From assembly GCA_964509385.1 (NCBI GenBank), contig CAZDXY010000015.1:2953-26952 (forward strand): 24,000 nucleotides of DNA, read 5' to 3'. Position 1 is the stretch's first letter; each line of letters starts with the position of its first letter. The notes beneath the pieces are model-generated. The model was not told where the DNA came from and did not search any database. It saw nothing but the letters and a program-made list of their open reading frames with translations. The stretch comes from an uncultured Rikenellaceae bacterium. Lineage in GTDB: Bacteria; Bacteroidota; Bacteroidia; Bacteroidales; Tenuifilaceae. This document shows, in pieces, positions 1-16,661 of the stretch. Made by a program: the position numbers and the translations under genes.

Positions 1-676
1 GATATTCAGCGCGTATATAAATTAAACCTTTTGTTGCACCAATGCAAAAGCCGTTGATGGTCATCGCCTCAATCACAGAATGAGGATCACCCTCAAGGAT
101 TGATCGATCCATAAATGCACCGGGGTCGCCCTCGTCGGCATTACAAACAACGTACTTCTGATCGGATTGATTTTTATGGGCAAATTCCCACTTTAAACCG
201 GTTGGAAATCCTCCACCACCACGACCACGGAGACCCGATTTCTTCATTTCGGTAATAGCTACCTGAGCACCCATATTGAAAACCAATCCCAAAGCCTGGT
301 AACCATCACGGGCAAAGTAATCCTCAATCTTTTCAGGGTCGATAACGCCACAATTACGGAGCGCTATACGAATCTGCTTCTTATTCAATTTCTCGTGCTG
401 AAGACTTTTTACCTGAACGCCTTTTACTATATGTTCGTTCACGATCTTTGTGGCATCGGAACTCTTCACCTTGGTATATATTGTGTTGTCGGGTAGAACT
501 TTAACAACTGGTCCCTCCTCGCAGAACCCAAAGCACCCTGTCAGGATCACCTGCACATCGTTTTCCAATCCATTGGCAGCAAGTTCGACCTTAAGGCTTT
601 CGGCAATGGAAAGGCTCTTCGAAGATTGGCAGCTGGTTCCCCCGCAAACGAGTATATGCGATTTGTATTTTGCCAT
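1..676 (-). CDS. NuoF-like NADH-binding flavoprotein subunit (HndC/HydB type) with N-terminal thioredoxin-like [2Fe-2S] module; N-terminal ~225 aa only, 3' end runs off the window
   Basis: Absent from the ORF track because there is no stop in the window. My minus-strand translation from ATG 676..674 reads MAKYKSHILVCGGTSCQSSKS...TGCFGFCEEGPVVKV, then ...SGLRGRGGGGFPTGLKWEF...YVVCNADEGDPGAFMDRS...GLIYIRAEY. These are the NuoF/51-kDa FMN/NADH signatures. An in-frame TAG at 691..689 fixes the start. AGGAGG lies 8 nt upstream. Confidence 0.85.
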   Translation of the reverse strand, partial: MAKYKSHILVCGGTSCQSSKSLSIAESLKVELAANGLENDVQVILTGCFGFCEEGPVVKVLPDNTIYTKVKSSDATKIVNEHIVKGVQVKSLQHEKLNKKQIRIALRNCGVIDPEKIEDYFARDGYQALGLVFNMGAQVAITEMKKSGLRGRGGGGFPTGLKWEFAHKNQSDQKYVVCNADEGDPGAFMDRSILEGDPHSVIEAMTINGFCIGATKGLIYIRAEY

Positions 677-684
677 TATATTAT

Positions 685-690
685 CCTCCT
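685..690 (-). promoter_or_regulatory. Shine-Dalgarno-like AGGAGG, 8 nt upstream of the NuoF-like start codon
   Basis: The plus strand reads cctcct at 685..690. On the minus strand this gives AGGAGGATAATATAATG. No other start codon in the window has a comparable 6-mer; the others have A/T-rich leaders. Confidence 0.5.
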
Positions 691-700
691 ATAGCGGTTA

Positions 701-1096
701 TTAATTATCAATGGAATTGTAGTTTTTGGGAATAATTCCATCCACTAATTCTCCATTCTTAATATACTTCTCGATGATCTCATCTGCTTTTTGGTTATCA
801 ACATAGCCAAAAACCACGGGTTCTTGATTGGGTAATTTCACTTCGATAGTGGGTTCAGCATAGCAGTAACCCATACAGCCAGTCTGAGTAACCATTGCAT
901 CTATGCTGCGCTTCTCCAACTCCTCGGATAAGAACTCCATTACGGTTTTAGCTCCCGAAGCGATTCCACAGGTGGCCATTGCTACCTTAATTTGAACCCG
1001 ACTATCAGGATCCTGCCCCTTTTCCCTAAGTTCGAGCTTGGATTGAAGTTGCTCTCTCAATTTTTTTAGATCGGCCAATGATTTTACTTTTGCCAT
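701..1096 (-). CDS. Thioredoxin-fold [2Fe-2S] ferredoxin, HndB-like (hydrogenase/NADH-oxidoreductase accessory subunit)
   Basis: 131-aa ORF. It has cysteine motifs AMATCGIASGA and TGCMGYCYAEP, typical of (2Fe-2S) thioredoxin-like ferredoxins. It lies 24 nt upstream of the NuoF-like gene on the same strand. Confidence 0.75.
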   Translation of the reverse strand: MAKVKSLADLKKLREQLQSKLELREKGQDPDSRVQIKVAMATCGIASGAKTVMEFLSEELEKRSIDAMVTQTGCMGYCYAEPTIEVKLPNQEPVVFGYVDNQKADEIIEKYIKNGELVDGIIPKNYNSIDN

Positions 1097-1157
1097 ATTT
1101 TTTGATGTCTAAAGGGTTTTTGTTATTTTATTAACACTAGAAATATTTTTTTCGCGA

Positions 1158-1165
1158 CAAAGTTA
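1158..1165 (-). promoter_or_regulatory. Candidate Bacteroidota -7 box (TAACTTTG on minus strand) for the hndB-like operon
   Basis: Exact match to TAnnTTTG, 62 nt upstream of the ATG at 1096. No well-spaced -33 TTTG was found, so support is weak. Confidence 0.3.
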
Positions 1166-1331
1166 TTTATTTTGCAAAACATTTTATATAAAAGGATTAT
1201 GTTTAATAACCTAGTTGATTATTTATACCTTTTCTAAAAATTGAATCTCTCATTCAAAAATAAACTAATTACTAACACTATACAAATTAGCATTGATAAA
1301 AAATTTAACTTGGAGCTCAAAATCAAGTGAA

Positions 1332-1359
1332 GATTTAAGTATAAAAAAAAACTTAAATC
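1332..1359. repeat. 9-bp perfect inverted repeat in the hndB/dcp divergent intergenic region
   Basis: gatttaagt (1332..1340) and acttaaatc (1351..1359) flank an A-rich 10-nt spacer, about 100 nt upstream of the dcp start. Confidence 0.3.
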
Positions 1360-1461
1360 ATTATAATTCAATCCCAATTTTTTAAATTGCATGGTTTTTT
1401 AGATCAATTATTGTTTTCAGTAGTATTTCACATTTAAACTTTACCTAATACACTAAATAAT

Positions 1462-3567
1462 ATGAAAAAAGTAGTCATGGTATCCATTACATTCGGATTA
1501 TTACTGGGCATGGTATCCTGCCAGAAAGAGTCAAACCCCTTGCTAGCACCTTACAACACTCCTTTCAACATACCCCCTTTCGAAAAAATAAAGGTTGAGC
1601 ATTTCGAACCTGCATTCGTTGAGGGCATGAAACAGCATAAACTTGAGATTGAGGCCATTTTAATGGATAAAAATGAGCCAACGTTTGAGAATACTATACT
1701 TGCTCTTGAGTATAGTGGAAGGCTTCTTTCTAATGTAGCAAACATTTTTTACCCACTAAGTTCAGCTAAAACTAGCCCTGAATTTCAAACTATTGCACAA
1801 TTGATCGCTCCCATGTTAAGCGGTCATATGGATGATATAAATCTTAATCCTGAACTCTTCAAACGTATCAAGGCCGTTTACGATAATAAGGATGAACTTA
1901 ATTTGAATCCCGAGCAACAAAAGTTACTTGAAAAGATTTATGATGGGTTTGTTCGTGGAGGGGCAAATCTTTCAGAAGAAAATCAAGTTCGTTTTCGTGA
2001 GATCAACGAAAAATTATCGCCCCTTACCCTTCGTTTCGGAGACAATGTGCTTGCCGAAACCAATAGTTTCCAACTGGTAATTGATGATCCCGATGATTTA
2101 GTTGGTTTACCTGAATCCGTTATTGCAGCTGCTGCTGACAAAGCAAACAGCCCAGGACTAGAGGGAAAATGGGTATTTACTCTTCATAACCCCAGTTGGA
2201 TTCCTTTCTTGCAGTACGCCGAAAATAGAGAATTACGCGAAAAACTTTATCGTGGATATTTTATGCGAGGGAACAATAACAACGAATATGACAATAAAAA
2301 TATCATAAAAGAAATTGTTCCTCTGCGTATCGAACGTGCTCAGTTATTGGGTTACCAAAGTCATGCACATTTTGTGCTGGAGAACAATATGACTAAGAAT
2401 CCTGAAACGGTTGAAAATTTCTTATTAGAACTATGGAAACCATCCCTCAATCGTGCAAAAGTTGAAGCCTATGATATGCAAAGGATGATTGATAAGGAAA
2501 GTGAAAAATTTAAATTGGCATCATGGGATTGGTGGTACTACACAGAAAAAATTCGTAAGGAAAAATTCGACCTGGATGAAGAAATGCTAAAACCCTACTT
2601 TGAACTTGAAAACGTAAAAAAAGGTATCTTTCTTTTAACTGAAAAACTTTACGGTTTAAAATACGAGAAATTGACCAATGTTCCGGTTTATCATCCTGAG
2701 GCTGAGGTTTATGAGGTTAAAGATGTTAACGATAACCACATTGGAATACTTTTCATGGACTTCCATCCCCGTGACAGCAAAAGAGGCGGTGCATGGATGA
2801 CCAGCTTTAGAGATCAGTACATAACAAGAGAAGGAGAATTTATCTCCCCCATCATTACCATAGTTTGTAACTTCACTCGCCCTACGGGCGATACACCTGC
2901 CCTGCTCTCGCTTGATGAAGTGAGCACCTTCTTTCACGAATTTGGACATGCTCTTCACGGATTGCTATCAAAAGTTATGTATCCCCGGCTTGCAGGAACC
3001 AACGTTCCCAGGGATTTTGTTGAGCTACCATCTCAAATAATGGAAAACTGGTGTACCGATCCAGAGTTTCTAAAGATGTATGCTTTTCATTACCAAACAG
3101 GTGAAACCATACCCGATGAATTAATAAAAAAGATGGAAGCCAGCGGAACCTTTAACCAGGGTTTTATTACCACTGAATACCTAGCTGCAGCAATACTTGA
3201 CATGAAGTATCATTCATTAAAATCGATTGAATACCTTGACGTTTTAGATTTTGAGAAAAAATCGATGCAAAAAATCGGTCTTATCGACGAAATAATCCCC
3301 AGGTATCGCAGCACTTATTTTCAGCATATTTTCAGCGGAGGATACTCTAGCGGTTACTACAGCTATATATGGTCGGGTGTTCTTGACGCTGACGCATATG
3401 AAGCTTTTATAGAAACAGGGAATATCTTTGATCCAGAAACCGCTAAACGATTCCGCGAGTTTGTTCTTGAGAAGGGTGGCACTGAAGATGCTGAGGTTCT
3501 TTACAGAAAATTCCGTGGTGCTGATCCTAAACCAGAAGCACTTTTAAAAAGAAGAGGATTGATTTAA
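1462..3567 (+). CDS. dcp: M3-family zinc metallopeptidase, peptidyl-dipeptidase Dcp-like, predicted lipoprotein
   Basis: 701 aa. The HEFGH zinc motif is at nt 2935..2949 (STFFHEFGHALHGLL). Length and the C-terminal YSSGYYSYIWSGVLDADAY region are typical of Dcp/oligopeptidase A. The N-terminus has a lipobox-like LLGMVSC. Confidence 0.85.
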   Translation: MKKVVMVSITFGLLLGMVSCQKESNPLLAPYNTPFNIPPFEKIKVEHFEPAFVEGMKQHKLEIEAILMDKNEPTFENTILALEYSGRLLSNVANIFYPLSSAKTSPEFQTIAQLIAPMLSGHMDDINLNPELFKRIKAVYDNKDELNLNPEQQKLLEKIYDGFVRGGANLSEENQVRFREINEKLSPLTLRFGDNVLAETNSFQLVIDDPDDLVGLPESVIAAAADKANSPGLEGKWVFTLHNPSWIPFLQYAENRELREKLYRGYFMRGNNNNEYDNKNIIKEIVPLRIERAQLLGYQSHAHFVLENNMTKNPETVENFLLELWKPSLNRAKVEAYDMQRMIDKESEKFKLASWDWWYYTEKIRKEKFDLDEEMLKPYFELENVKKGIFLLTEKLYGLKYEKLTNVPVYHPEAEVYEVKDVNDNHIGILFMDFHPRDSKRGGAWMTSFRDQYITREGEFISPIITIVCNFTRPTGDTPALLSLDEVSTFFHEFGHALHGLLSKVMYPRLAGTNVPRDFVELPSQIMENWCTDPEFLKMYAFHYQTGETIPDELIKKMEASGTFNQGFITTEYLAAAILDMKYHSLKSIEYLDVLDFEKKSMQKIGLIDEIIPRYRSTYFQHIFSGGYSSGYYSYIWSGVLDADAYEAFIETGNIFDPETAKRFREFVLEKGGTEDAEVLYRKFRGADPKPEALLKRRGLI

Positions 3568-3586
3568 TTTTCTTTATTTAATTGGT

Positions 3587-3658
3587 GAACAAGGATTAAC
3601 GATTGAAGATTTAAGAAGTGTATTTTAATCTTAGATCAAAAATCATTAATCCTTGTTC
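3587..3658. terminator. Long-loop inverted repeat between convergent dcp and DUF418 genes (possible bidirectional terminator)
   Basis: Perfect 13-bp arms: gaacaaggattaa (3587..3599) and ttaatccttgttc (3646..3658), separated by 46 nt. Located between stop codons at 3567 (+) and 3665 (-). Confidence 0.4.
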
Positions 3659-3664
3659 GTTATT

Positions 3665-4903
3665 TTATTTTTTGAATGGCTGAATCTTTAAGTATGTAAG
3701 ACTCCTCCACACCCACTCGAAAGGACCAAAATGGAATCGTTTCAACCACCAAGCACTAAAAGGGATCTGCAGTCCGTAAATAATGATTGTCAGAATAATC
3801 CCCTGCCATATTTCAATCTTTCCGAATTGGCCTAATCCGTATGAAAGAAAAACAAATGTGCAGATTATTGAGTGCATCAGGTAGTTGGTGAGAGCCATTC
3901 GCCCTACAGGAGAAAGCCATTTTGTTAAAGTTCCAAGTTTTCCCTTTGATACTAATAGCACCACCACCGAAACGTAAAGAAGGCAGAAAGAAAAACCTCC
4001 CAACGAGTGTCCTAATGTGGAGAGGAACGACCAGACATCAGGATTCATTACCTGTGCATGTTGGAATGAGTATGTATAAGCAGTATTAGCTATCAACCCA
4101 ATGCCTAATCCCCACCAAAAAGCTTTACGGAAGAAGAGTAAATTCTCCATATAATTAGCAATCATTTTTTTTCGTGCAGCCCATGCTCCAAGCAGAAACA
4201 TGGCCATTACCATGGGGTAGAAGAACAGAACACCGGGTAAAATCGCCTTATACTCTTCAATTCTAATTGCGATTATTTCGTTGAATGAACCTTGAGAATA
4301 TGCAAGTGATGCACGGTCCACCAAATCGCTAATTGCATCAATACTTTGCTGAATTCCTACTTCCATGCCTTCCCTCGCCTGCGGAATTTGTGAAAAAAGG
4401 ACGAAAATGAGAACCATAAACCCCGTGAAAACCGAGGGGATTACACCTAGTCCAATGGCCCACCCAACCAGTCTTTTGTTTGATACCTTTCGGAAAAGAA
4501 CCAGCAGCAACCCTAAAAGACCATAGAAAACAAGGATATCGCCTGGCCATAATAGTACAACGTGCACAACGCCAAATAGGAACAGAAGGAATGCCCTTCT
4601 GGCAAAAACAGGGAGGATGTTCGATCCTTCACTAGTAGTTTTGTTGATGAAAATCCAGAAACCATATCCAAAAAGCATGGAAAACATAACGTAGAACTTT
4701 CCCTCGAAGAAGAACTTGATAAACGACTCCGACAAGATATGGACAAACGAAGCATCGGGTTTTGCTCCTTGCATCATCACGCTAAACGGTTGAAAGAATA
4801 ATGGCATATTCACCATTAGTATACCAAAAATGGCTAAACCTCGCAGAGTGTCAAGTAATGTTATTCTTTCAGTCTGATCAATGGGTGAAAAGGTATTTTT
4901 CAT
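3665..4903 (-). CDS. DUF418 / YeiB-like polytopic membrane protein
   Basis: 412 aa and multi-TM. N-terminal LDTLRGLAIFGILMVNMP and C-terminal GRMALTNYLMHS...RFHFGPFEWVWRSLTY are the characteristic YeiB/DUF418 motifs. Confidence 0.85.
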   Translation of the reverse strand: MKNTFSPIDQTERITLLDTLRGLAIFGILMVNMPLFFQPFSVMMQGAKPDASFVHILSESFIKFFFEGKFYVMFSMLFGYGFWIFINKTTSEGSNILPVFARRAFLLFLFGVVHVVLLWPGDILVFYGLLGLLLVLFRKVSNKRLVGWAIGLGVIPSVFTGFMVLIFVLFSQIPQAREGMEVGIQQSIDAISDLVDRASLAYSQGSFNEIIAIRIEEYKAILPGVLFFYPMVMAMFLLGAWAARKKMIANYMENLLFFRKAFWWGLGIGLIANTAYTYSFQHAQVMNPDVWSFLSTLGHSLGGFSFCLLYVSVVVLLVSKGKLGTLTKWLSPVGRMALTNYLMHSIICTFVFLSYGLGQFGKIEIWQGIILTIIIYGLQIPFSAWWLKRFHFGPFEWVWRSLTYLKIQPFKK

Positions 4904-4942
4904 GATAATTTTTTTAATAATTTAGGGTTGAATATTCACTTT

Positions 4943-4950
4943 TATTTTTG
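4943..4950 (+). promoter_or_regulatory. Candidate -7 box TATTTTTG far upstream of the TonB-dependent receptor operon
   Basis: Exact TAnnTTTG match. TTTA (not TTTG) lies 18 nt upstream. It would imply a leader of roughly 260 nt before ATG 5222. Speculative. Confidence 0.2.
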
Positions 4951-5221
4951 AAAAAAATTATTTGCATTTTTTTTAAATTTTCTAAATAAAAACTCGCCTT
5001 AAATTTTTACTATCCTCTCTTCATCAACATATTTAACAAAAAATAGATTCAAACGATTGTAAAAATAAACTAACTATTACCTTCGTAAAAAGAAAAAATT
5101 ACTAAACTTCTATTAAACTGAACCTACTTTTAGCATTCTAAATGATAGTGCTGTAAAATAATCCTATTCTCATAAGGTTTACCCAGTTAACAAAATGCTA
5201 ATTTATAGATAAATAAATAAT

Positions 5222-7921
5222 ATGTCATTTTTTTTTAGTCTAAGAAAGACTTTTACCGTTTTTTTATTCTTATTCTCTCAAATTTCTATTTCGCAATTTG
5301 CTTTTTCTCAGGATAGTAATAAACCTATACTGCAATTGCTTTTGGAATTACAACAAATGCACTCGCAGAAAATTTTATACAATTCAATTTGGTTTGAAGG
5401 AGACTCTGCCAGCGAAAGAATACTATCTCTTCCTCTTAATGAAGCGCTAAACGTCATGCTTTCTGATCAGAATATGGATGTTATTTCATTTCAACGGAAT
5501 TTAATTATTGTACCCAAAGAGTCTGCTCCATTATCACTTAACGAAATGCAGGATACTCGACATGTAATTGGGAACACAATAAAATACGGAAAGTATTCAA
5601 GAGCATCTGTCAACGGAAAAGTTGTTGATGGAGAAACCGGAGAACCACTAATAGGAGCAATCATTTACATTGAAAGTTTGGCACAAGGTACAAGCACAGA
5701 TATGAATGGAAATTACTCCATTGAACTTCCTGTAGGAGAACATCTCTTGAAGTTGTCGTACATAGGATATGGCGAATCTTTTCACCCAATACGACTACTT
5801 AGTCCTGGGGAATTAAATCTTGAAATTTTTGAGAAAAGTCATGCACTTGAAAGCGTAAGTATCTATGCAAAAAGGGAAGATTTAAATATATCCCAAACTC
5901 AAATGAGCATTGTTCGTATCGATGCAAAGTCTATTCGTTTACTTCCCACATCTCTTGGCGAAACAGATGTAATAAAAAGTATAGCGCTTATGCCTGGTGT
6001 TCAGTCGGTTGGAGAATTTGGCTCTGGCTTTAATGTTAGGGGTGGTAGTGCTGATCAAAACTTAATTCTTATTGAAGGAGTTCCCCTATTTAACTCATCC
6101 CATCTTTTTGGTTTAACGTCTCTTGTTAATCCAGACATGGTTAGCAGTATTACTCTAATAAAAGCAGGTATACCTGCAAAATTTGGAGAACGAGCCTCTT
6201 CTGTGATGGATATTCGCATTGGCGGTGGTAATGAAGGAAAATTTCGGGTTAATGGAGGTGTTGGTTTGTTAAACAGCAGGTTGAGCATTGAAACCCCTTT
6301 TCCTAGGAAAAAAGGTTATTTTTTAATTGGTGGCAGGTCGACTTACTCAAACTGGTTGCTCAATAAACTTCCCAACGAAGATCTGATGAATAGTTCAGCA
6401 CTTTTCTATGATATCAATGGGTTAATAACCTTTCCATTAAATTCTAACCATAGTATAACCATATTTGGCTACACCAGCTACGACTCTTTTTCGTTAAGTG
6501 ATAACATTGACTATAATTATTCAAGTAACCTGGCCTCTTTTAGATTGGCAGGGCACCTAACAAGCAAACTTCTATCCAACCTCACTTTAGGGTATAGTTC
6601 CTATAATTATGGAATGGATAACAACAACACAATTAATCCAATAAATGCAAATCGTTTCCAATCAGGAATATCGCATAACAGCCTTAAATGGAATCTGAAT
6701 TACTACAGGACCCCAGGTCATGCAATGGAATTTGGTATAAACACGATTTTATACGGAATAGAACCCGGTAAAATCATGCCTATTGGCATTCAGTCAACTG
6801 TAAATCAACACTCACTCGAAAAAGAGCAAGCCCTTGAACTTTCTCTATATTTTGGCAATACCATTGAAATTACCGAAGAGTTTAGTGCTGATATGGGCTT
6901 ACGACTATCGCAGTTCCTTAAATTAGGACCAGGAACCTCCCGCATATATAGTAACGATTTTCCTATGTCAGTTGTAAGCATAATTAATAGTCAGAACTAT
7001 GAGAAAAATGAAATTATGGCTTATCACATTGGCCTTGAGCCACGAATGGGACTAAGGTATCAGTTAAACCCAACCAGTTCATTTAAGTTAAGCTATAATA
7101 GGGGAACCCAATTTGTAAATCTTGTTTCGACAACTGCCATTTCTACTCCATCTGATGTTTGGTACTTAAGTAACGAACACTACGCTCCCACTTTAGTTGA
7201 TCAATTAGCATTGGGATTTTTCAAAAACTTTAGTAATAATGCTATCGAATCATCCATTGAATTATACTATAAAAATCTTCAGAACGTACTGGAAACCAAA
7301 AACAACGCTCAAATATTGATGAACACAATGCTTGAAGCTGATCTCATTGCTTGCAATGGTTATAGCTATGGCTTAGAATTATACTTTAAAAAGATTTCGG
7401 GAAATTTAACGGGTTGGATTAGTTATACTTTTTCCCAGTCCATGAGAAAAACTTCAGCCATTCATTCCGAAGAACAGATTAATGCCAATGAATATTTCCC
7501 ATCCAATTTCGATAGCCCTCACAATCTTGTGTTAAATAGTAACCTCAACCTTAGCCGACGTTGGAGAGTAGGCGCCTCATTTACTTACAATACAGGTAGA
7601 CCGATTACTTTACCAGAACTCTCCTATGGTATAAATGGTCACCAATTAATACACTATTCTGATCGGAATAAGTATCGGCTACCTGACTATCACAGGTTAG
7701 ATTTATCGTTAAGTTATGACGGATCACTAAGGCTCACAAAGAAATGGAAAAGCTTTTGGACTATTTCCGTAATTAACGTATACTCCCGCAAGAATATACA
7801 TTCCATATACTACGAAAAGACAACACCTTCTCCCATGAATAATTATCAAAAATACAGCCTTTATAAGCTAACAATAATTGGAAGGCCTTTACCAACACTT
7901 ACATACAACTTTACATTCTAA
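5222..7921 (+). CDS. TonB-dependent outer-membrane receptor with N-terminal STN-like extension and CarboxypepD_reg-like domain
   Basis: 899 aa with a signal peptide. An STN-like stretch spans roughly nt 5324..5516. The CarboxypepD_reg motif is VNGKVVDGETGEPLIGAIIYIE...TDMNGNYSIELPVGEHLLKLSYIGYG. Plug motifs are GETDVIKSIALMPGVQS, FNVRGGSADQNLILIEGVPLFNSSHLFG. The C-terminus is aromatic (TYNFTF). Confidence 0.88.
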   Translation: MSFFFSLRKTFTVFLFLFSQISISQFAFSQDSNKPILQLLLELQQMHSQKILYNSIWFEGDSASERILSLPLNEALNVMLSDQNMDVISFQRNLIIVPKESAPLSLNEMQDTRHVIGNTIKYGKYSRASVNGKVVDGETGEPLIGAIIYIESLAQGTSTDMNGNYSIELPVGEHLLKLSYIGYGESFHPIRLLSPGELNLEIFEKSHALESVSIYAKREDLNISQTQMSIVRIDAKSIRLLPTSLGETDVIKSIALMPGVQSVGEFGSGFNVRGGSADQNLILIEGVPLFNSSHLFGLTSLVNPDMVSSITLIKAGIPAKFGERASSVMDIRIGGGNEGKFRVNGGVGLLNSRLSIETPFPRKKGYFLIGGRSTYSNWLLNKLPNEDLMNSSALFYDINGLITFPLNSNHSITIFGYTSYDSFSLSDNIDYNYSSNLASFRLAGHLTSKLLSNLTLGYSSYNYGMDNNNTINPINANRFQSGISHNSLKWNLNYYRTPGHAMEFGINTILYGIEPGKIMPIGIQSTVNQHSLEKEQALELSLYFGNTIEITEEFSADMGLRLSQFLKLGPGTSRIYSNDFPMSVVSIINSQNYEKNEIMAYHIGLEPRMGLRYQLNPTSSFKLSYNRGTQFVNLVSTTAISTPSDVWYLSNEHYAPTLVDQLALGFFKNFSNNAIESSIELYYKNLQNVLETKNNAQILMNTMLEADLIACNGYSYGLELYFKKISGNLTGWISYTFSQSMRKTSAIHSEEQINANEYFPSNFDSPHNLVLNSNLNLSRRWRVGASFTYNTGRPITLPELSYGINGHQLIHYSDRNKYRLPDYHRLDLSLSYDGSLRLTKKWKSFWTISVINVYSRKNIHSIYYEKTTPSPMNNYQKYSLYKLTIIGRPLPTLTYNFTF

Positions 7922-7933
7922 TATTTAAAAAAA

Positions 7934-9022
7934 ATGACAATACCTAGAATAATTATAATATTGGTTTCAGCACTTTGTATTTTTCTTTATGCTTGCAGAG
8001 AGATTTACGAACCTACTATTGATATTAAAGGGAATGCTCTTGTTGTTCAGGGATTAATTACTGATCAACCTGGACCATATCACATTAAACTAACAACCAC
8101 AATTCCTTTCAACTCTGGACAAAAATCTGTTCCTGTTGAAGGCGCACAAGTTTCTGTAGATGACGATCAGGGTGCAACTTATATCTTCAGTGAGGTTTTT
8201 CCGGGTGAATATCGCTCATCAGAGACGATGATTGGAATGATTGGAAGAAGTTATACTTTAAATATACATACTCAGGATGGTAATAATTACACATCCTCAC
8301 CCCAAACAATGCTGCCAAGCATAGATATCTTATCAATAAAACCAGAAATAGCCATAAAAACTGAAGTTTATGAGGACGAGCTTGGCAATCTGGTTCTCAG
8401 GGAAATTCAGGGCGTCAATGCGATCCTTCAGGTGGATGAAAATTATGAAAACAATCCCATGATACGTTTCGATTCAAAGATCGTAGTACAATATGTTTAC
8501 CCTTCGGGTGAAGATCCACCTGAAGGACCCGGACCGTTATGGTATTGCTGGAAAATATACGAACAGGCACAAGGTATTTATAACATTAACTTTCCTACTG
8601 TCGATAATACTCCTGGAGATATTAGCAACACAGTTGTTGCTTTTATTCCTAGAAGATCGGTTAAGTATTATTCTCTTCCCTGGGATAGATTAATTCAAGG
8701 TATACTACTTAAAGTTTCTGTTTACACACTAAACCAAAACTCTTATCAATATTACTACGAAGTAATAAAACAGATTAATTCCGATGAAAGTTTATTTTCT
8801 CCTATTCCTTCACAAATAAATAGTAATATGAGATGTGTTAATGATCCCAATAAAATTGTAGTTGGGCATTTCGAAGCTTCTTCTGAAATAACGAATGGAT
8901 ATATTGTAAGGGATCGGTTTTATCCTGAGCAAGTAAATTTCGAACTGACAAATAAGCTGGATTCAATTCCCCCATCAAATTGTTTTGATAATGTTAAACC
9001 TGATTTTTGGGTAAATAACTAA
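7934..9022 (+). CDS. DUF4249-family lipoprotein
   Basis: 362 aa with a lipobox-like FLYAC. The N-terminal pattern ALVVQGLITDQPGPYHIKLTTTIPF...PVEGAQVSVDDDQGATYIFSE..PGEYRS...GRSYTLNIHTQDGNNYTS matches my recollection of the DUF4249 family, which typically follows CarboxypepD_reg TonB-dependent receptors. Starts 12 nt after the receptor stop. Confidence 0.72.
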   Translation: MTIPRIIIILVSALCIFLYACREIYEPTIDIKGNALVVQGLITDQPGPYHIKLTTTIPFNSGQKSVPVEGAQVSVDDDQGATYIFSEVFPGEYRSSETMIGMIGRSYTLNIHTQDGNNYTSSPQTMLPSIDILSIKPEIAIKTEVYEDELGNLVLREIQGVNAILQVDENYENNPMIRFDSKIVVQYVYPSGEDPPEGPGPLWYCWKIYEQAQGIYNINFPTVDNTPGDISNTVVAFIPRRSVKYYSLPWDRLIQGILLKVSVYTLNQNSYQYYYEVIKQINSDESLFSPIPSQINSNMRCVNDPNKIVVGHFEASSEITNGYIVRDRFYPEQVNFELTNKLDSIPPSNCFDNVKPDFWVNN

Positions 9023-9029
9023 TATTATT

Positions 9030-11312
9030 ATGCTAATTAATAAAACAATAATAACAAGTTTTCTAGTTATCTTCCTTTTAACCGATGGATTTTGCAATGC
9101 AAAATTTGCTCTTTCAGAATTTGTACCCAACGAAAATTTATATATACATACCGATAAAGATATTTACTTCTCGGGGGATAGAGTTTTTTTCAAAACCTAT
9201 CTAAACGTTGGAAAAGACGTTAACAATTCCCTAATAAGCAAAGTTTTATACATTGCCTCTTATGCTCCAAACGGAAGCATGATTGATAGCATTGAAATGT
9301 TCTCTCCAAATCTTTTTAATCATGGAAGTTTTTTCCTTCCCGATACTTTAAAAACTGGATTATATAGATTAGTTGGTTGGACAAATAATATGCTTATTAC
9401 AAATACGCCCTTTTTTGTTAAACAAATCATTGTGATAAACAGATTCGATGAAGATCCTATAAAAACCATTGGATTATACTGTCAAAAACCCATTGAAGTT
9501 ATTGTAGAAGGTGGTGGACTTACATATGGTATAGAAAATCAATTGGCTGTTCTTTACTACAATCAAGATTTCACTGAAAAGCATGCATATATAATTGAAA
9601 ATGATTCGGATACAACAACGACTTTTGAAATTAATGATTTAGGTTTCTCGATATTTTCTTTTACTCCTGAATCAAAAAAAGATTATTCCATTCACTTTCC
9701 AAAGAAAGATCCAATTAAAATCCCCTCAAATACTCTTGAAAAGAACTTATTAATGATTCGACAATCAGAAGGGGATCAAATTTCAGTGCTTGTTCAACCC
9801 TCAAAATCCACAAATAATGTTTTTATTAAAATCTCGCAAGGAAATGTAATCCTAAAAGAAAGCTATGTCGATTTAAAACAAACAGTCAATGAGTTTAAAT
9901 TTGATGCTGGTAAATTCCCTTTGGGGCTCCTAACCATTGCCCTTTTAGATTCAAACAGAGATGTTATAAAGGAGGAATTTTATGTTAATCGCATGAATTG
10001 TCAAGGCATTAAAGTCAATACAGATAAAGAAAATTATGGCACAAGGGAAAAGGTTAACCTAATATTTAACAAATCCATCCTTACAGCTGATATTGCATCT
10101 GCATCTCTATCGGTTACAAGGGATGAAACGCTTTTGGCAAATAACTCACCAAGCATTCATTCCTTCAATGAATTTGATAATAAAGAAAATCATTACTACG
10201 TAACAAATTACGCTATTAACTCTTTCGTAACCAAGGATTACTCATTAATACCTTCTCAAAGATTTCAGAATTTACAATTTGAGATGATTATTCCTGAAAA
10301 CCATGGTTCGATTTTAAGTGGAAAAGTTATTGACAAAACCTCAAGATTACCCATTTCTAGAGCAATTGTTTTTCTTTCCACTCAGGATACCATTGTTAAT
10401 TTGAAATATTCAGAAACATACCTAGATGGCTCTTTCTTCTTTCTAATGACCGATTACTATAAGAACAAGGGCATTTACCTTAGCATATATGATCCTTTGA
10501 ATTTGTATAATGCAGAAATAGTAATTAGAAATAAGTTTAATCCTCTACCCTATACACCAAACAAAATAATAGTACACAATAATCTATCTCAATATATTGA
10601 GGACACTAAAATAATAAAACGTGTTCAAAAATCTTTTGGAATAAATCATTTGCCACAAGAAAGTCATCGGTTAAAAGTAAAACAATCAATACCAACACTT
10701 TACCATAATCCTACCTTTAAATATAAAACATTAGATTATGTATCATTGGATAACTTTTCGGAAATAGCATACGAAATAATCCCTATACTTAGAATAAGGA
10801 AAGAGAAAGGGAAATTCACTGCAAGAATGATAAATTCAAGCACAAGGGAATTCTTCCCTCAGGAACCAGTAATTTTTCTAAATGGAGTCTACATGTCAAA
10901 TATTAATGACATTATACACCTATCATCAAAAGATATTAAATCGATTGAACTTATTAGTCATTCTAGCATCCTGGGAAATATTGAATTTAATGGAATCCTT
11001 TCGATTTTTACAAATGAACCTGCAGATAATATCTTCCAAAAAGACCATAAAAAGCCAGTGTATTTTAACATAGATAGGGATAAAATAAATTTCTTATCGC
11101 CAAAATACGACGATGATCAAAAAATAGATCAATATTTTCCTGATCTCAGAGAAACCATAACCTGGATTCCAAACCTTGAACTAATCGATGGCTTTCCATC
11201 GAATATCTCATTCTATACTAGTGATGTAGTGGGAAATTATTCAATTATTATCGAAGGAATTTTAATAAATGGAAAACCCTTCTCACAAAGAATACCTTTA
11301 ATTGTTAAATAA
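9030..11312 (+). CDS. Secreted hypothetical protein with MG2 (alpha-2-macroglobulin N-terminal)-like, CarboxypepD_reg-like and Plug-like segments; no beta-barrel
   Basis: 760 aa with a signal peptide. MG2-like: YIHTDKDIYFSGDRVFFKTYL...HGSFFLPDTLKTGLYRLVGW (~9138..9420). Second MG-like: IKVNTDKENYGTREKVNLIF (~10008..10140). CarboxypepD_reg-like: GSILSGKVIDKTSRLPISRAIVFLS...YLDGSFFF (~10305..10490). Plug-like: EPVIFLNGVYMSNINDIIHLSSKDIKSIELISHSSILGNIEFNGILSIFT (~10862..11018). It ends ...IPLIVK with no aromatic OMP terminus. Domain calls are motif-level only. Confidence 0.6.
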   Translation: MLINKTIITSFLVIFLLTDGFCNAKFALSEFVPNENLYIHTDKDIYFSGDRVFFKTYLNVGKDVNNSLISKVLYIASYAPNGSMIDSIEMFSPNLFNHGSFFLPDTLKTGLYRLVGWTNNMLITNTPFFVKQIIVINRFDEDPIKTIGLYCQKPIEVIVEGGGLTYGIENQLAVLYYNQDFTEKHAYIIENDSDTTTTFEINDLGFSIFSFTPESKKDYSIHFPKKDPIKIPSNTLEKNLLMIRQSEGDQISVLVQPSKSTNNVFIKISQGNVILKESYVDLKQTVNEFKFDAGKFPLGLLTIALLDSNRDVIKEEFYVNRMNCQGIKVNTDKENYGTREKVNLIFNKSILTADIASASLSVTRDETLLANNSPSIHSFNEFDNKENHYYVTNYAINSFVTKDYSLIPSQRFQNLQFEMIIPENHGSILSGKVIDKTSRLPISRAIVFLSTQDTIVNLKYSETYLDGSFFFLMTDYYKNKGIYLSIYDPLNLYNAEIVIRNKFNPLPYTPNKIIVHNNLSQYIEDTKIIKRVQKSFGINHLPQESHRLKVKQSIPTLYHNPTFKYKTLDYVSLDNFSEIAYEIIPILRIRKEKGKFTARMINSSTREFFPQEPVIFLNGVYMSNINDIIHLSSKDIKSIELISHSSILGNIEFNGILSIFTNEPADNIFQKDHKKPVYFNIDRDKINFLSPKYDDDQKIDQYFPDLRETITWIPNLELIDGFPSNISFYTSDVVGNYSIIIEGILINGKPFSQRIPLIVK

Positions 11313-11314
11313 AA

Positions 11315-12034
11315 ATGAGTAATAGAAAAATATTTTTGCCCCTAGCAATAAATTTGCTTTTTCAGATAATTGGTTTTACTCAAACTAATAATACCGTTGA
11401 AATAATTGAAAAATTGAATGAATCTCACCTTTTTGGTGAAATTGTTTACAAACAAAAACCCACAAAGGGTAGTCAACTCTTACTTGAAAGTTGGAGTGAG
11501 GGAACTGTAATCCTGAAAAATGGATTCATTTCAAATAATAATCTTTTAAACTATAACGGGTACATTGATCAAGTACTTTGGTTCAATTCATCAAAAGTTA
11601 GAACAGTTATCCTTGAAAAGGAAGCCATTCATGAATTTTCACTATTCGATACGAAAACAAAAGACACTTTAATTTTCAGAAATATTGAAGCAAAGGTACC
11701 ATTCTACAGTTTACCGCCTAGTTTTTTTGCTCAAGTATTATACGAAGGAAACATTGTCCTATTTGTTTTTAGACAGATTATTGATGCAGGTATTTATTCG
11801 TACCAAGAGAATAATAGCACTTTTGAAATTCCGATAGTAAAACCAAGAAATTTATACTTCATCAAACTAGCTAATAATGATGTTATTCCTATAAAGAAAA
11901 TCAACAAAAGATCAATTTTTAATGCCCTTCCTTCAGAAAAAGATCATATAAAAAAATTTATAAGTCATAACAAGTTTTCCATAAAGAATGAGAAAGATCT
12001 AATAAGAATTATCAACTTTCTTGATATCGAATAA
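11315..12034 (+). CDS. Small secreted hypothetical protein (recurrent Bacteroidota family, no named domain recognised)
   Basis: 239 aa with a signal peptide (LAINLLFQIIGFTQ). The pattern GSQLLLESWSEGTVILKNG...LLNYNGYIDQVLWF ... and the C-terminal K-rich tail ...KKFISHNKFSIKNEKDLIRIINFLD resemble uncharacterised Bacteroidota proteins I recall. Starts 2 nt after the upstream stop. Confidence 0.55.
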   Translation: MSNRKIFLPLAINLLFQIIGFTQTNNTVEIIEKLNESHLFGEIVYKQKPTKGSQLLLESWSEGTVILKNGFISNNNLLNYNGYIDQVLWFNSSKVRTVILEKEAIHEFSLFDTKTKDTLIFRNIEAKVPFYSLPPSFFAQVLYEGNIVLFVFRQIIDAGIYSYQENNSTFEIPIVKPRNLYFIKLANNDVIPIKKINKRSIFNALPSEKDHIKKFISHNKFSIKNEKDLIRIINFLDIE

Positions 12035-12749: not shown

Positions 12750-14138
12750 TTACATATGAATCACCTCGCCATAAGCTGCAGCAGCAGCTTCCATAATGGC
12801 CTCACTCATGGTTGGATGTGGATGAATGCTTTTAATAAGTTCATGACCTGTAGTCTCAAGATTACGGGCTACAACCATCTCTGCAATCATTTCGGTTACA
12901 TTTCCACCAATCATGTGTGCCCCTAGCAATTCACCATATTTGGCGTCAAAAATAAGCTTCACAAAGCCATCGTGCATACCTGCTGCGGTTGCTTTTCCTG
13001 ATGCGGTAAAGGGAAACTTACCAACCTTAATCTCATATCCTGCCTCTTGGGCAGCCTTTTCGGTCATGCCCACCGATGAAACCTCGGGCATGGTGTAGGT
13101 ACAACCAGGGATATTCTTATAGTTTATTGGGTGCACATCCATTCCTGCAATCTTCTCAACACAAACAATACCCTCGGCAGATGCCACGTGAGCAAGTGCT
13201 GGGCCTGGAATGATATCACCAATTGCGTAAATTCCGTCAATGTTGGTACGATAATACTCATCAACCTTCACCCTGCCATTTTCAATGGCAACGCCTACCT
13301 CTTCAAGTCCAATCCCTTCAATGTTAGGAGTAATACCCACAGCCGATAATACGATCTCGGACTCAACAACTTCCTCGCCTTTCCTGGTTTTTATGGTAAC
13401 CCTGCAAAGATCACCGCTGGTGTCAACCGCTTCAACGGTTGAATCAGTCATTACCTTTATCTTTGCTTTTTTGAATGAACGCTCAAGGGTTTTGGAAACC
13501 TCTTCATCCTCAAGAGGTACAACATTTGGCATGAATTCAACTAAAGTAACCTCTGTGCCAATGGCATTGTAGAAGTATGCAAATTCACTACCAATTGCAC
13601 CAGAACCTACAACCACCATCGACTTAGGCTGTTTAGGAAGAGAAAGCGCTTGGCGGTAGCCAATAATTTTTCCTCCATCCTGCTTGAGATTGGGTAATTC
13701 CCGAGACCGTGCTCCTGTGGCAAAAATGATATGTTTGGCTGTATATTCTTGGTTTTTTCCATCCAAACCCGTTACGATAACAACACCCTTACTCTTTAGC
13801 TTACCAAAACCAGCTATAACATCAATCTTATTTTTTTTGAAAAGGAACTGTATACCCTTACTCATGCTATCAGCTACTCCACGGCTTCGTTCAATCATTT
13901 TTGCAAAATCGGGTTTTACATCGCTTGCCATAACACCATACTCAAGGGCATGCTGAGCATACTCGTAAACTTGAGCGCTTTTTAAAAGCGCCTTGGTAGG
14001 AATACATCCCCAATTGAGGCAGATTCCACCGAGGTTTTCCTTCTCCACAACTCCAACCTTTAAACCCAATTGGCTAGCTCTAATTGCTGCCACGTAACCC
14101 CCAGGGCCACTCCCAATAACAATAACATCGTAGTTCAT
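12750..14138 (-). CDS. lpdA: Dihydrolipoyl dehydrogenase (E3)
   Basis: 462 aa. It has the FAD motif VIVIGSGPGGYVAA, the redox-active disulfide GGICLNWGCIPTKALL, a second dinucleotide motif VVVGSGAIGSEFA and a C-terminal HPHPTMSE interface motif. Confidence 0.93.
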   Translation of the reverse strand: MNYDVIVIGSGPGGYVAAIRASQLGLKVGVVEKENLGGICLNWGCIPTKALLKSAQVYEYAQHALEYGVMASDVKPDFAKMIERSRGVADSMSKGIQFLFKKNKIDVIAGFGKLKSKGVVIVTGLDGKNQEYTAKHIIFATGARSRELPNLKQDGGKIIGYRQALSLPKQPKSMVVVGSGAIGSEFAYFYNAIGTEVTLVEFMPNVVPLEDEEVSKTLERSFKKAKIKVMTDSTVEAVDTSGDLCRVTIKTRKGEEVVESEIVLSAVGITPNIEGIGLEEVGVAIENGRVKVDEYYRTNIDGIYAIGDIIPGPALAHVASAEGIVCVEKIAGMDVHPINYKNIPGCTYTMPEVSSVGMTEKAAQEAGYEIKVGKFPFTASGKATAAGMHDGFVKLIFDAKYGELLGAHMIGGNVTEMIAEMVVARNLETTGHELIKSIHPHPTMSEAIMEAAAAAYGEVIHM

Positions 14139-14175
14139 GGTTATTTGCGTATTATTTTGTTCAAAATTTAGTTAA

Positions 14176-15018
14176 TTACAAATTAAATTGATTATGGTTG
14201 ATTTTTTCTCTTAAAAAACGAAAAAATCTAGCTATTAAAAAAATGATTACCAGCGAAATAATAATTGTTGCACCCGAAGGCACGTTCAGTCCATATGAAA
14301 TTAATAGTCCTACCAATGATCCAACAAAACCAATTAATACCGATGCGAATATAATGTTCTTAAATTTCTTAGTAAAAAGGTTTGTTATGGTTGGTGGTAC
14401 TGTGAGCAAAGAAATCAGAAGGATTATACCTACCAATCTAATGCTCAAAACAATGGTCATTGCTAAAAAAGCTTTAAGGATATAAGTAAAGAGTTTCTCT
14501 GGAATTTTCTGTGTTCTTGCAAAGTTTGGATCAAAAGCAAGGTAAAGTATTGGGCGATAAAAAATAATAAAGAACGATATCATTACTATGTCTAGTCCGA
14601 GCAATAAGTATATATCCTGTTTAGAAACAGTAAGAATTGATCCAAAAAGAAAGCTCATAAGGTTTGGAGCATATCCTGGGGTTAAAAAAACAAAGAAAAC
14701 ACCAATTGCCATACCCACTGACCAAAGCATACCAATTGCAGAGTCCTCACGCACCCTAAATTTGGTGGATAATACTTCTACTCCAAATGCAGTAATCACT
14801 GCGAAAACCATTGCCCCAAGAATAGGGTTTAATCCAAGGTAATATGCTATTCCAATACCACCAAAAGAAGCGTGTGTAATGCCACCGCTAAAGAAAACTA
14901 ACCTACGAGCTACGATGTAAGTACCAACCAACCCTGCAGCCACAGAAACCAGTAATGCTGCCCAAAAAGCATTTAATACAAATTGGTATTGAAGTATGTC
15001 TGAAAAAAAACTAAACAT
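14176..15018 (-). CDS. znuB: Metal (Zn/Mn-type) ABC transporter permease, ABC-3 family
   Basis: Polytopic membrane protein typical of ZnuB/TroC. I place the start at the internal ATG (MFSFFSDILQ..., 15018..15016) rather than the ORF-track 15093. The longer form would overlap the upstream ATPase gene by 61 nt and adds a non-hydrophobic Cys/His-rich leader. Metal specificity is inferred only from the neighbouring binding protein. Confidence 0.8.
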   Translation of the reverse strand: MFSFFSDILQYQFVLNAFWAALLVSVAAGLVGTYIVARRLVFFSGGITHASFGGIGIAYYLGLNPILGAMVFAVITAFGVEVLSTKFRVREDSAIGMLWSVGMAIGVFFVFLTPGYAPNLMSFLFGSILTVSKQDIYLLLGLDIVMISFFIIFYRPILYLAFDPNFARTQKIPEKLFTYILKAFLAMTIVLSIRLVGIILLISLLTVPPTITNLFTKKFKNIIFASVLIGFVGSLVGLLISYGLNVPSGATIIISLVIIFLIARFFRFLREKINHNQFNL

Positions 15019-15032
15019 ATTATCCAAATAAA

Positions 15033-15776
15033 TTAGTGCTTGGTTAAAACAGTATGAGGAACAGGTCCATGTGCTATGATTTGTATTGGGCAATCATAGG
15101 CAGCCAATTGTTCAGTGGTTATTAAATTTGATGGATGATAATGCAGGTGCCTGTTAACACAGGCAATAGTCTTAACATGAGAAGTTATGGTTCCCAAATC
15201 GTGTGATACCATTATTATGGCCATCTCCTTATTTAATTCCTTTAGCAATTCATAGAGTTCCTTTTCAAACTTATTGTCAACAAAAGTATTGGGTTCATCA
15301 AGTATTAATAGTCGAGGGTGTGAAACTAGTGCTCTGCTTAAAAAAACACGTTGCATTTGTCCTCCTGAAAGTTCACCGATTACTTTGTCCTTTAGGCTTT
15401 GGATTCCCAAACGGTTAAGAAGATCCAATGCCATTCGTTTATCCTGTGCGGTATACCTTCCACCAATTCCCTTTCTCCCCAATAAACCCGAAAGTACAAC
15501 TTCCATAACCGAGATGGGAAATTTCTTATCTATTCCAACCACCTGAGGAAGATAGCCAAAAATAGTATCATTTGGATTAAGCTTAAAAAATTCAACTGAA
15601 CCTTTTTTTGGTTTTAGCTCTCCTAATATCAACTTCAAAAGGGTGGTTTTTCCTCCGCCATTTGGACCAATAACACCAACAAAATCGAAATCGGAGATTA
15701 CTAAATTAACATCTCTAAGAATCAATTCATCGTCGTAGCCAACCGATGCTGAAGTAATTTCTAGTATTTTACCCAT
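15033..15776 (-). CDS. znuC: Metal ABC transporter ATP-binding protein
   Basis: 247 aa with Walker A GPNGGGKTT, signature LSGGQMQRV and Walker B LLILDEP. Flanked by cognate binding-protein and permease genes. Confidence 0.88.
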   Translation of the reverse strand: MGKILEITSASVGYDDELILRDVNLVISDFDFVGVIGPNGGGKTTLLKLILGELKPKKGSVEFFKLNPNDTIFGYLPQVVGIDKKFPISVMEVVLSGLLGRKGIGGRYTAQDKRMALDLLNRLGIQSLKDKVIGELSGGQMQRVFLSRALVSHPRLLILDEPNTFVDNKFEKELYELLKELNKEMAIIMVSHDLGTITSHVKTIACVNRHLHYHPSNLITTEQLAAYDCPIQIIAHGPVPHTVLTKH

Positions 15777-15782
15777 TATAAA

Positions 15783-16661
15783 TTAGTTTCCGTTTAAAGC
15801 ATCCTTAAAAAGATCAGCTGTAAGAAACATGTTGCTTAGCCAATTATAATCTAGCGGATCAATCACAACTACTTTACTCCCAATGTCATCTGCAATTGTT
15901 TTCGCCATACTCGCATCAAACTCTTTCTGAATAAAAATGGTTTTTACACCTTCGTTTTTTGCATCTTTCAAAACCGATTTCATATGCTTCATGGATGGAG
16001 ATTTACCATCTTCTTCCAATGAAACCTGCACCAAACCATAATCCCTTGCAAAATAGGTGAATGCAGGGTGAAAAATGAAAAACTTATTTGTAGAAACATC
16101 CTGAAAAGAACTTTTCAAATATGAGTCTAAACTATCAATTTCAGCAATAAATAATTGGGTATTTGCTCTAAAAACTGAATCATTCTTAGGAAAAAGCTCG
16201 GAAAGGGTAATGTATATGGAATTCACCATTTTTTTTACCTCAACTGGCGATAGCCAAACATGCGGATCAAAACCGTGGCTGTGTGAATGGTCATGATGAA
16301 TACATTGTCCCTCGATCAGATTAAACTCGTTGGAGTGATTGATAAAAAGAGTATAAATGTTATTCCCTTGTATTTTTTTTAGTGTAGTTTTCTCAAAATC
16401 TAATAGTCCAAGCGAAAAATAGGCTAAAGAATTACTTAAGGTTTTAATTTGAAATGGTGTGGGCTCATAAGTTTCGGGGCTAGAACCTGAAGGTACCATT
16501 ACACTAACATTTAACAATGTATCGGCTATACGTTCAACAAAATACTTCTGGGGTAAAATGCTTACCATTACATTGGGCTTATCAAAACCAGATGGTTGAT
16601 AAGTACAACCAGAACTTAGCAATACTATTATAAAAGCAATAAGGGTCAAACTTCTTAACAT
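15783..16661 (-). CDS. znuA: Metal ABC transporter substrate-binding lipoprotein (ZnuA/TroA cluster-9 family), probably zinc
   Basis: 292 aa with lipobox LLSSGC. The His-rich segment CIHHDHSHSHGFDPHVWLSP includes the conserved DPHxW motif. Confidence 0.82.
   Translation of the reverse strand: MLRSLTLIAFIIVLLSSGCTYQPSGFDKPNVMVSILPQKYFVERIADTLLNVSVMVPSGSSPETYEPTPFQIKTLSNSLAYFSLGLLDFEKTTLKKIQGNNIYTLFINHSNEFNLIEGQCIHHDHSHSHGFDPHVWLSPVEVKKMVNSIYITLSELFPKNDSVFRANTQLFIAEIDSLDSYLKSSFQDVSTNKFFIFHPAFTYFARDYGLVQVSLEEDGKSPSMKHMKSVLKDAKNEGVKTIFIQKEFDASMAKTIADDIGSKVVVIDPLDYNWLSNMFLTADLFKDALNGN

Follow-up and report, generated by a model that had tools for sequence, protein, structure and literature searches.

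A barrel-less protein joining an alpha-2-macroglobulin-type scaffold to a plug-like cassette is encoded in a conserved TonB-dependent transporter operon of Bacteroidota

In a 24,000-nucleotide stretch of DNA from an uncultured Rikenellaceae bacterium (contig CAZDXY010000015.1; this whole stretch is called the window below), we analyzed the gene for a 760-residue protein, P0001. Four genes lie close together here, all in the same orientation, and that for P0001 comes third, after those for a TonB-dependent transporter and a DUF4249 lipoprotein and before one for a 239-residue protein that we call P240. On balance, with a probability of roughly 0.55, we favor the view that P0001 is an exported, barrel-less protein derived from the alpha-2-macroglobulins (A2M), in which a folded cassette of a CarboxypepD_reg-like and a Plug-like domain replaces the bait region, and that it acts as a dedicated fourth component of a TonB-dependent uptake operon. 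The initial annotation, made from the letters of the window alone, had described a barrel-less protein with MG2-like, CarboxypepD_reg-like and Plug-like parts, and profile searches, structure prediction and fold searches all back that domain reading. The colinearity with A2M that puts a module at the bait position, the very large family and the four-gene operon go beyond it.

The open reading frame (ORF) is intact, running from an ATG start to a C-terminal end of ...PLIVK. A second TDK motif had been placed about 290 residues after the first, and the two are indeed found at residue 41 (YIHTDKDIYFSGDRVFFKT) and residue 331 (KVNTDKENYGTREKVNLIF), 290 residues apart. The ending in IVK and the missing barrel are equally clear: in place of a 22-strand barrel with an aromatic end, about 80 residues that are predicted to form four beta-strands follow the Plug-like module, and the last residue is lysine, as it is in 76 of 146 family members. 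The receptor upstream ends in ...YNFTF.

The N-terminal part of P0001 is recognizably built from macroglobulin (MG) domains, as had been suspected from the sequence. In P0001 itself the Pfam MG2 match at residues 37 to 120 is below threshold (E = 1.7e-4; 22.3 bits, with a cutoff of 32.8); among 18 relatives, 17 have a Pfam MG2 match, the best at E = 1.4e-10, and the MG2 structure of human A2M (2p9r) was matched by profile at E = 5e-3. A full-length model was made with AlphaFold2 (AF2) from 18 sequences, with a predicted local distance difference test score (pLDDT) of 78.9 and a predicted template modeling score (pTM) of 0.77. When this model was compared to the PDB with Foldseek, the best 50 matches were all A2M, C3, C4, C5, CD109 or TEP1 structures, with E values of about 1e-11 and a probability of 1.0. 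The A2M proteins of E. coli and Salmonella were among the top matches, again consistent with an MG2 fold.

This kinship can be followed along the sequence of P0190, a bona fide A2M with MG2 at residues 270 to 365, Pfam A2M (PF00207) at 1045 to 1135 and a thioester domain at 1250 to 1459, with CFEQ at 1263. The profile of the P0001 family matched P0190 in three colinear pieces, in which residues 38 to 116 of P0001 correspond to residues 270 to 349 of P0190 (22.1 bits, E = 1.9e-9), 150 to 416 to 471 to 761 (119 bits, E = 7e-39) and 696 to 753 to 1032 to 1089 (E = 7.6e-10); the first and last were also retrieved by a profile from the clade of P0001 itself. The third piece covers the start of PF00207 (from P0190 residue 1045), and the same segment of P0190 aligns to residues 730 to 834 of human A2M ("VRKYFPETWIW..."). 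The C-terminal 60 or so residues of P0001 therefore match the "FPETWLW" segment that comes directly after the A2M bait region, which in the human protein (UniProt P01023) is placed at residues 690 to 728. For this C-terminal piece the link to A2M was made only via P0190, a true A2M, as intermediate; when a profile of the C-terminal 75 residues alone was run against the PDB, neither A2M nor complement proteins were among its matches. Taken together, the alignments argue strongly for descent of P0001 from the A2M superfamily, with the MG scaffold kept from MG2 to the bait-carrying MG domain.

About 280 residues, made up of the CarboxypepD_reg-like and Plug-like domains, separate the second and third pieces. 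Because these two domains fill that gap, the alignments place them at the position held by the bait region in A2M. The cassette does not have the character of a flexible bait region, being mostly folded with confidence in the model (pLDDT of 80 to 92 in both domains), and no alignment was obtained between it and the region of P0190 at that position. In P0190 this region (residues 762 to 1031) consists of about 270 low-complexity residues with two hydrophobic, transmembrane-like stretches, which is unusual for a bait region. On either side of the cassette, AF2 predicts three strands at residues 328 to 366, followed by a low-confidence linker, and four strands at residues 709 to 759. The second TDK element falls within the colinear match to P0190, upstream of the bait region. 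We infer that the three and four strands add up to one MG sandwich, split by the cassette; in that respect it would presumably resemble MG6 of C3 and A2M.

P0001 lacks all that follows the bait domain in A2M (MG7, CUB, the thioester domain and the receptor-binding domain) and stops about 60 residues past the bait position. P0001 has no C.EQ motif and none of 146 relatives has C[GL]EQ; Pfam reported neither the thioester domain (TED) nor A2M_recep in P0001 or its relatives.

Within the cassette, the first domain (residues 424 to 500 or so) has a CarboxypepD_reg/transthyretin-like fold (PF13620/PF13715), in agreement with the Ig-like carboxypeptidase-regulatory fold proposed at the outset. Five of the 18 relatives have a Pfam PF13620 match (best E = 1e-8), and P0001 itself has no CarboxypepD_reg match in Pfam. 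In profile searches the domain matched NOMO2 (E = 1.7e-4) and transthyretin-like proteins (E = 2e-3), and Foldseek returned transthyretin-type folds, weakly. In the model a long helix and a low-confidence linker lie between this domain and the next.

The second domain had been said to resemble the core of the Plug domain strongly. What stands of this is a specific, remote profile similarity to transporter plugs; a Pfam Plug match was never reported for P0001 or the relatives searched. A Plug-only profile of 53 sequences found 21 PDB matches at E <= 10, and 18 of these were plug regions of TonB-dependent transporters, led by SusC homologues (E = 4e-4) and followed by 8ypt (2.4e-3), RagA (0.07) and FepA (0.09), with Cir (E = 0.17; profile positions 22 to 111 against Cir 41 to 135), PfeA and FyuA also present. 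Compared by hhalign with the N-terminal module of the neighboring receptor, the cassette gave P = 1.8e-4 over 186 colinear columns. The Plug-like module has a local pLDDT of 88 to 92, and its predicted order of strands and helices appears to follow that of the plug in solved transporter structures. With a model of the fragment 418 to 705, Foldseek listed Cir at rank 20 (E = 0.24, probability 0.89, 114 columns) and nothing at E <= 1e-3; the fold search alone is no proof of a plug fold. We thus read residues 555 to 680 or so as a putative homologue of the transporter plug, remote but specific, and as the weakest of the domain calls. By eye, no motif similar to a TonB box was found, the TonB box being too degenerate for a decisive sequence test, and the region before the Plug-like module aligns to the TonB-box region of the receptor with minimal confidence only. 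For the C-terminal two thirds of the family, Pfam and NCBIfam have no model.

P0001 is a member of a conserved four-gene TonB-dependent transporter operon, in the window spanning positions 5222 to 12034 with intergenic gaps of 12, 7 and 2 nucleotides (nt). The complete receptor that had been noticed two genes upstream is there, with CarbopepD_reg_2 and Plug domains. All eight Bacteroidales loci have the four-gene set; leaving aside a relative with 81% identity, their proteins are 53 to 62% (transporter), 39 to 47% (DUF4249), 34 to 40% (P0001) and 28 to 44% (P240) identical to those of the window. Divergent relatives of P0001, at 23 to 28% identity, also lie downstream of a transporter gene and one or more DUF4249 genes, and the same context is seen for typical members of 790 to 800 residues from Ohtaekwangia, Flavisolibacter and a soil metagenome, where the four-gene set is complete. 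At least four orders of Bacteroidota have the module: the Bacteroidales, Cytophagales, Chitinophagales and Flavobacteriales. Because the flanking genes differ between loci, the four genes travel as a unit.

A search for related loci by alignment gave only six close loci. We scored the ORFs of 80 further metagenome loci with hidden Markov models (HMMs) built from the operon partners; these loci are the ones most similar to one typical member and represent one large subfamily, not the whole superfamily. Where at least 1.2 kb lies upstream of the family member, a DUF4249 gene is the adjacent upstream gene on the same strand in 56 of 59 loci and is somewhere in the locus in 59 of 59. A transporter gene on the same strand is upstream in all 41 loci with at least 5.2 kb, and P240 is upstream in all 36 with at least 6.2 kb. 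In 35 of those 36, the order is P240, transporter, DUF4249 (one to four copies) and family member, with one, two, three and four DUF4249 copies in 24, 5, 3 and 3 of the 35 loci, respectively (four, for example, in L031, L040 and L091). In locus L013, four DUF4249 genes are instead found upstream of the transporter gene. One contig (L021, positions 3 to 10358) carries two consecutive modules, a DUF4249 gene with a family member and then P240, transporter, DUF4249 and family member, so that more than one copy of the system per genome is possible.

P240 is a second uncharacterized component of the four-gene system; it has no Pfam, NCBIfam or PDB profile match. It is encoded by the last gene in the Bacteroidales clade and by the first, upstream of the transporter gene, in all other lineages examined. 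The upstream proteins of about 240 residues are homologous to P240 of the window over nearly their full length (hhalign P = 2e-4), and an alignment of 13 sequences extends over their whole length and shows glycines and aromatic residues that never vary.

Where would P0001 be found in the cell? Family members begin with an ordinary signal peptide, in many cases with ...AQ at its end, and a lipobox-like pattern is present in only 10 of 143. The N terminus of P0001 reads ...LTDGFC, with phenylalanine at position -1, and the cysteine is not conserved in the relatives. We rejected a lipoprotein on these grounds. Type IX secretion cargo was also rejected, given that the C-terminal sorting domain (PF18962/TIGR04183, Por_Secre_tail) had no match in P0001 at E <= 1 in Pfam or NCBIfam and that the C terminus is homologous to an MG segment of A2M. 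To our knowledge, a lipoprotein export signal and the type IX C-terminal domain are the known routes to the surface in Bacteroidota. Since neither signal was found, P0001 is most likely exported, not lipidated and retained in the periplasm. This disfavors the MG2-based surface trap that had been put forward earlier as one possible role.

The Bacteroidota family of which P0001 is a member is very large and has no name. An exhaustive HMM search over 1.84 billion cluster representatives (clusters at 50% identity) gave 20,297 matches at E <= 1e-3, of which 10,155 reach E <= 1e-30. Those with the best scores are mostly 780 to 815 residues long and colinear with the query over their whole length. 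It was this search that showed how large the family is; when alignments served as queries, word-indexed searches for homologues yielded hardly anything beyond what a single-sequence search gave. In their sources, relatives are named "hypothetical protein" or "MG2 domain-containing protein," for example in Ohtaekwangia, Flavisolibacter and Salinimicrobium, and the nearest relative in a genome, at 81% identity, is again from an uncultured Rikenellaceae bacterium. Short variants of 580 to 660 residues (Table 1) lack the two middle MG-like domains (P0001 residues 145 to 320 or so) and keep MG2, the putative split MG domain and the CarboxypepD_reg/Plug-like cassette; because these variants do without them, the middle domains are dispensable. 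P0001 is no rarity of this window; the architecture of its family is well defined and unusual, and the known kinds of protein to which it is assigned are the A2M superfamily and transporter accessory proteins.

How might such a protein act in an uptake operon? We envision that, after Sec export, P0001 would stay in the periplasm, where its rigid MG scaffold would hold a copy of the transporter's N-terminal module, in soluble form, against the side of the transporter that faces the periplasm. On that side the transporter of the operon carries, besides its own plug, an N-terminal extension made up of an STN-like domain and then CarboxypepD_reg. The cassette could dock on this STN/CarboxypepD_reg extension or on the plug, or it could engage their partner, TonB, and either event may gate transport or couple it. 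A partnership with the receptor, possibly through presentation of a TonB box, had been suggested before; gene-order conservation strongly supports the functional link, and presentation of a TonB box finds no support, none being recognized. Nor is a plug provided in trans needed, as the receptor carries its own. One can nonetheless imagine a bolder arrangement, which we consider doubtful, in which a widespread class of Bacteroidota TonB-dependent transporters would require the soluble plug homologue as a periplasmic subunit that acts in trans to gate or energize transport. Such an element might engage TonB or the periplasmic extension, or might insert into the emptied barrel from below.

Several points weigh against a dedicated periplasmic component of the transporter. 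Physical contact between P0001 and the transporter is presumed, and its putative periplasmic location is deduced from the lack of any known signal for export to the surface. Similarity to Plug is remote, Pfam giving no match, profiles a best E of 4e-4 and Foldseek an E of 0.24. With no TonB box recognized and a receptor that owns a plug, the role of a second plug-like domain is not evident from sequence. The split-MG geometry is itself a proposal. Finally, a distant relative, P0016, is solitary, and another, P0017 (983 residues), is one of three tandem paralogues beside vWA/AAA genes, both without a transporter gene. Because these two occur without a transporter, the scaffold is not restricted to a transporter role.

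Among other explanations, P0001 might be a periplasmic receiver for cargo, akin to a binding protein or chaperone, that picks up substrate emerging from the transporter lumen and passes it on, with the cassette as the ligand-binding site instead of a docking or coupling element. The same operon conservation and the export without a lipid anchor would be expected of such a protein. The plug apices of transporters contact substrate, and one locus has a gene for a major facilitator superfamily (MFS) transporter directly downstream. We find this rather unlikely, however, in that no ligand-binding family was recognized, no inner-membrane transporter is conserved in the operon, and known periplasmic binding proteins have unrelated folds.

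Less probable again is a surface-exposed capture protein that would feed the DUF4249-lidded transporter from outside, in the manner of the surface glycan-binding proteins of SusC/SusD systems. Surface binding proteins from the uptake loci of Bacteroidota typically have arrays of Ig-like domains, the gene is linked to the operon, and one to four DUF4249 lids suggest diversification on the substrate side. The missing lipobox cysteine and the lack of a Por_Secre_tail/TIGR04183 match speak against it, as does a C-terminal piece that is homologous to an A2M MG half-domain rather than a secretion tag.

That P0001 is a stand-alone A2M-like periplasmic protease inhibitor or defense protein, next to a transporter gene by chance, seems very improbable to us, despite its clear A2M-superfamily descent, the periplasmic location of bacterial A2Ms and an M3 peptidase gene upstream in Bacteroidales loci. 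That peptidase gene is not kept across orders, whereas the order of transporter and DUF4249 genes is, in 35 of 36 loci. With bait region, thioester motif, TED, CUB and receptor-binding domain all lacking, a thioester-type protease trap in particular is ruled out.

A frameshifted or truncated remnant of a TonB-dependent receptor, which the initial annotation had kept open and which the receptor-like order of CarboxypepD_reg and Plug-like domains might suggest, can be dismissed: the cassette is embedded between A2M-type domains, the same architecture and C-terminal end recur in thousands of full-length, colinear relatives (more than 10,000 representatives at E <= 1e-30), P240 starts 2 nt past the stop codon of P0001, and the operon already has an intact receptor gene whose product includes a plug.

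Comparison with known systems helps define what is unusual about P0001. Like the bacterial A2Ms (E. coli ECAM/YfhM, Salmonella A2M and the thioester-less YfaS type), it is built from MG domains and probably Sec exported, with a recognizable MG2, colinearity through the bait-carrying MG domain and the "FPETWLW" segment after the bait position. It differs from them in having about half their length, a folded cassette for a flexible bait and no lipid anchor, and in lacking MG7, CUB, the thioester domain, the receptor-binding domain and CxEQ. Bacterial A2Ms have pbpC or yfa genes as neighbors, and P0001 has those of a transporter operon.

P0001 has in common with the N-terminal module of SusC/RagA-type transporters from Bacteroidota the order of a CarboxypepD_reg-like and then a Plug-like domain and recognizable core motifs of the plug (LDGVP..., I..IEV... 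and G...GI..I.T). The arginine of the plug "RG" motif appears not to be kept, at a position where the hhalign alignment is of low confidence. Unlike the transporter module, P0001 has no 22-strand barrel, no aromatic C terminus and no TonB box that we could find; its two domains are separated by a long helix, and the cassette is inserted into another protein. The accessory proteins of SusC/SusD "utilisomes" are a further parallel, also being extra multi-Ig-like proteins whose genes adjoin those for a transporter and lid. These utilisome proteins, which bind glycans at the surface, are surface lipoproteins, however, whereas P0001 has no lipobox and has a plug-like domain; none of them is known to carry such a domain.

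DUF4249 lipoproteins have been proposed to be the lids of non-SusC transporters (Price et al. 2023, bioRxiv 10.1101/2023.03.17.533168), on the basis of AlphaFold-Multimer contacts on the outer face, cofitness of BT2172 and BT2173 in B. thetaiotaomicron and conserved adjacency of the genes. The window has the same arrangement as the BT2172/BT2173 pair described in the available text of that preprint, a non-SusC transporter gene and then a DUF4249 lipoprotein gene. That text mentions the pair only, and term searches added no mention of an MG/Plug-like protein or a protein of about 240 residues; the operon of the window has both in addition to the pair. Literature searches on MG2 and TonB, on bacterial A2M with TonB-dependent transporters, on a plug domain with MG2 and on the genes flanking BT2172/BT2173 gave nothing relevant, and neither protein is mentioned in any other paper that was found.

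Bacteroidota take up nutrients mainly through TonB-dependent transporters, and the partners known for these so far are surface lids and surface binding proteins. Two of the four components of the module are without a described function, and one of these, P0001, unites the scaffold of an A2M with the plug of a transporter, two folds not known together. If P0001 is a periplasmic subunit, transporters can have dedicated partners on their inner side, and the family would provide a handle on what binds the N-terminal extensions of Bacteroidota transporters. It would also mean that a plug fold is possible in a soluble domain, a point of relevance to the origin of plug-and-barrel transporters. Should the subunit act in trans, as in the bolder arrangement above, this would be a new principle of TonB-dependent uptake and the first known function of a plug fold outside a barrel.

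Table 1. Features of P0001, its operon and the rest of the window, with genes from related loci (positions are those of the window except where a locus is named)
Feature	Position	Strand	Basis
P0001, MG-scaffold/Plug-like protein, 760 residues	9030..11312	+	ORF list; full-length colinear relatives
Signal peptide, predicted type I without conserved lipobox, residues 1-24	9030..9101	+	Predicted helix at residues 2-20; family N termini
MG2-like domain, residues 35-136	9132..9437	+	Pfam, 2p9r, alignment to P0190 270-349
Two more MG/Ig-like beta-sandwich domains, residues ~150-222 and 240-320	9477..9989	+	AF2 strands; match to P0190 471-761
Second "TDK..Y..REKV" element, proposed first half of split MG, residues 328-366	10011..10127	+	Motif; three strands
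CarboxypepD_reg/transthyretin-like domain, residues ~424-500	10299..10529	+	Profiles; Pfam in relatives; weak Foldseek
Plug-like module without recognizable TonB box, residues ~555-680	10692..11069	+	Profiles, hhalign, fragment Foldseek
C-terminal four-strand Ig-like piece, residues 696-760	11115..11309	+	Family profile against P0190 1032-1089
TonB-dependent transporter, 899 residues: STN-like N terminus, CarbopepD_reg_2, Plug, barrel, ends in YNFTF	5222..7921	+	Pfam/profile
DUF4249 lipoprotein, proposed transporter lid, 362 residues, lipobox LYAC	7934..9022	+	Pfam, E = 6.5e-27
P240, signal-peptide protein of unknown fold, 239 residues	11315..12034	+	Conserved in all Bacteroidales loci
M3 peptidase	1462-3567
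DUF418 membrane protein	3665-4903
TPR + SpoIIE phosphatase	16868-19414
MeaB GTPase	19540-20628
DUF4369 + AhpC/TSA thiol peroxidase	20679-21782
Omp85-family protein	21867-23954
Upstream ~240-residue protein, outside Bacteroidales	L006 3148-3885
Upstream ~240-residue protein, outside Bacteroidales	L014 3343-4074
Upstream ~240-residue protein, outside Bacteroidales	L016 3357-4088
Short variant of family	L009 3626-5497
Short variant of family	L010 6035-7777
Short variant of family	L011 7986-9857
Short variant of family	L012 871-2850

The other genes of the window are of housekeeping type and none encodes a glycan-utilization enzyme, so the operon does not lie in a classical polysaccharide utilization locus. 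Just downstream, on the minus strand (12750 to 16661), are a gene for a dihydrolipoamide-dehydrogenase-like flavoprotein and those for a metal importer of the ATP-binding cassette (ABC) family, ZnuA/ZnuC/ZnuB type. We considered a link between ZnuABC and the substrate of the transporter and found it unsupported; the genes are on the opposite strand and are syntenic in Bacteroidales (L001, L003), not in other orders.

Residues 1 to 125 of the transporter (window positions 5222 to 5600) are STN-like and faintly FecR_C-like, as in the signaling TonB-dependent transducers, and the STN-like N terminus is common to the transporters of L006, L014 and L016 to L018. Among the loci with neighboring genes listed, no sigma/anti-sigma pair was found in or beside the operon.

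In locus L015 (5631 to 14223), the gene for P0017 is followed by genes for proteins of 920 and 917 residues with faint MG2 matches; the neighbors are vWA and AAA_5 genes and a pair for an extracytoplasmic function (ECF) sigma factor and its anti-sigma factor, with no transporter gene. At the other end of the size range, P0021 to P0029, P0036, P0037 and P0108 have 1450 to 1860 residues, about double the usual length, and each has between two and four separate matches to the family profile. Two family units seem to have been fused in tandem in these proteins; P0022, for example, has two MG2 and two CarboxypepD_reg matches.

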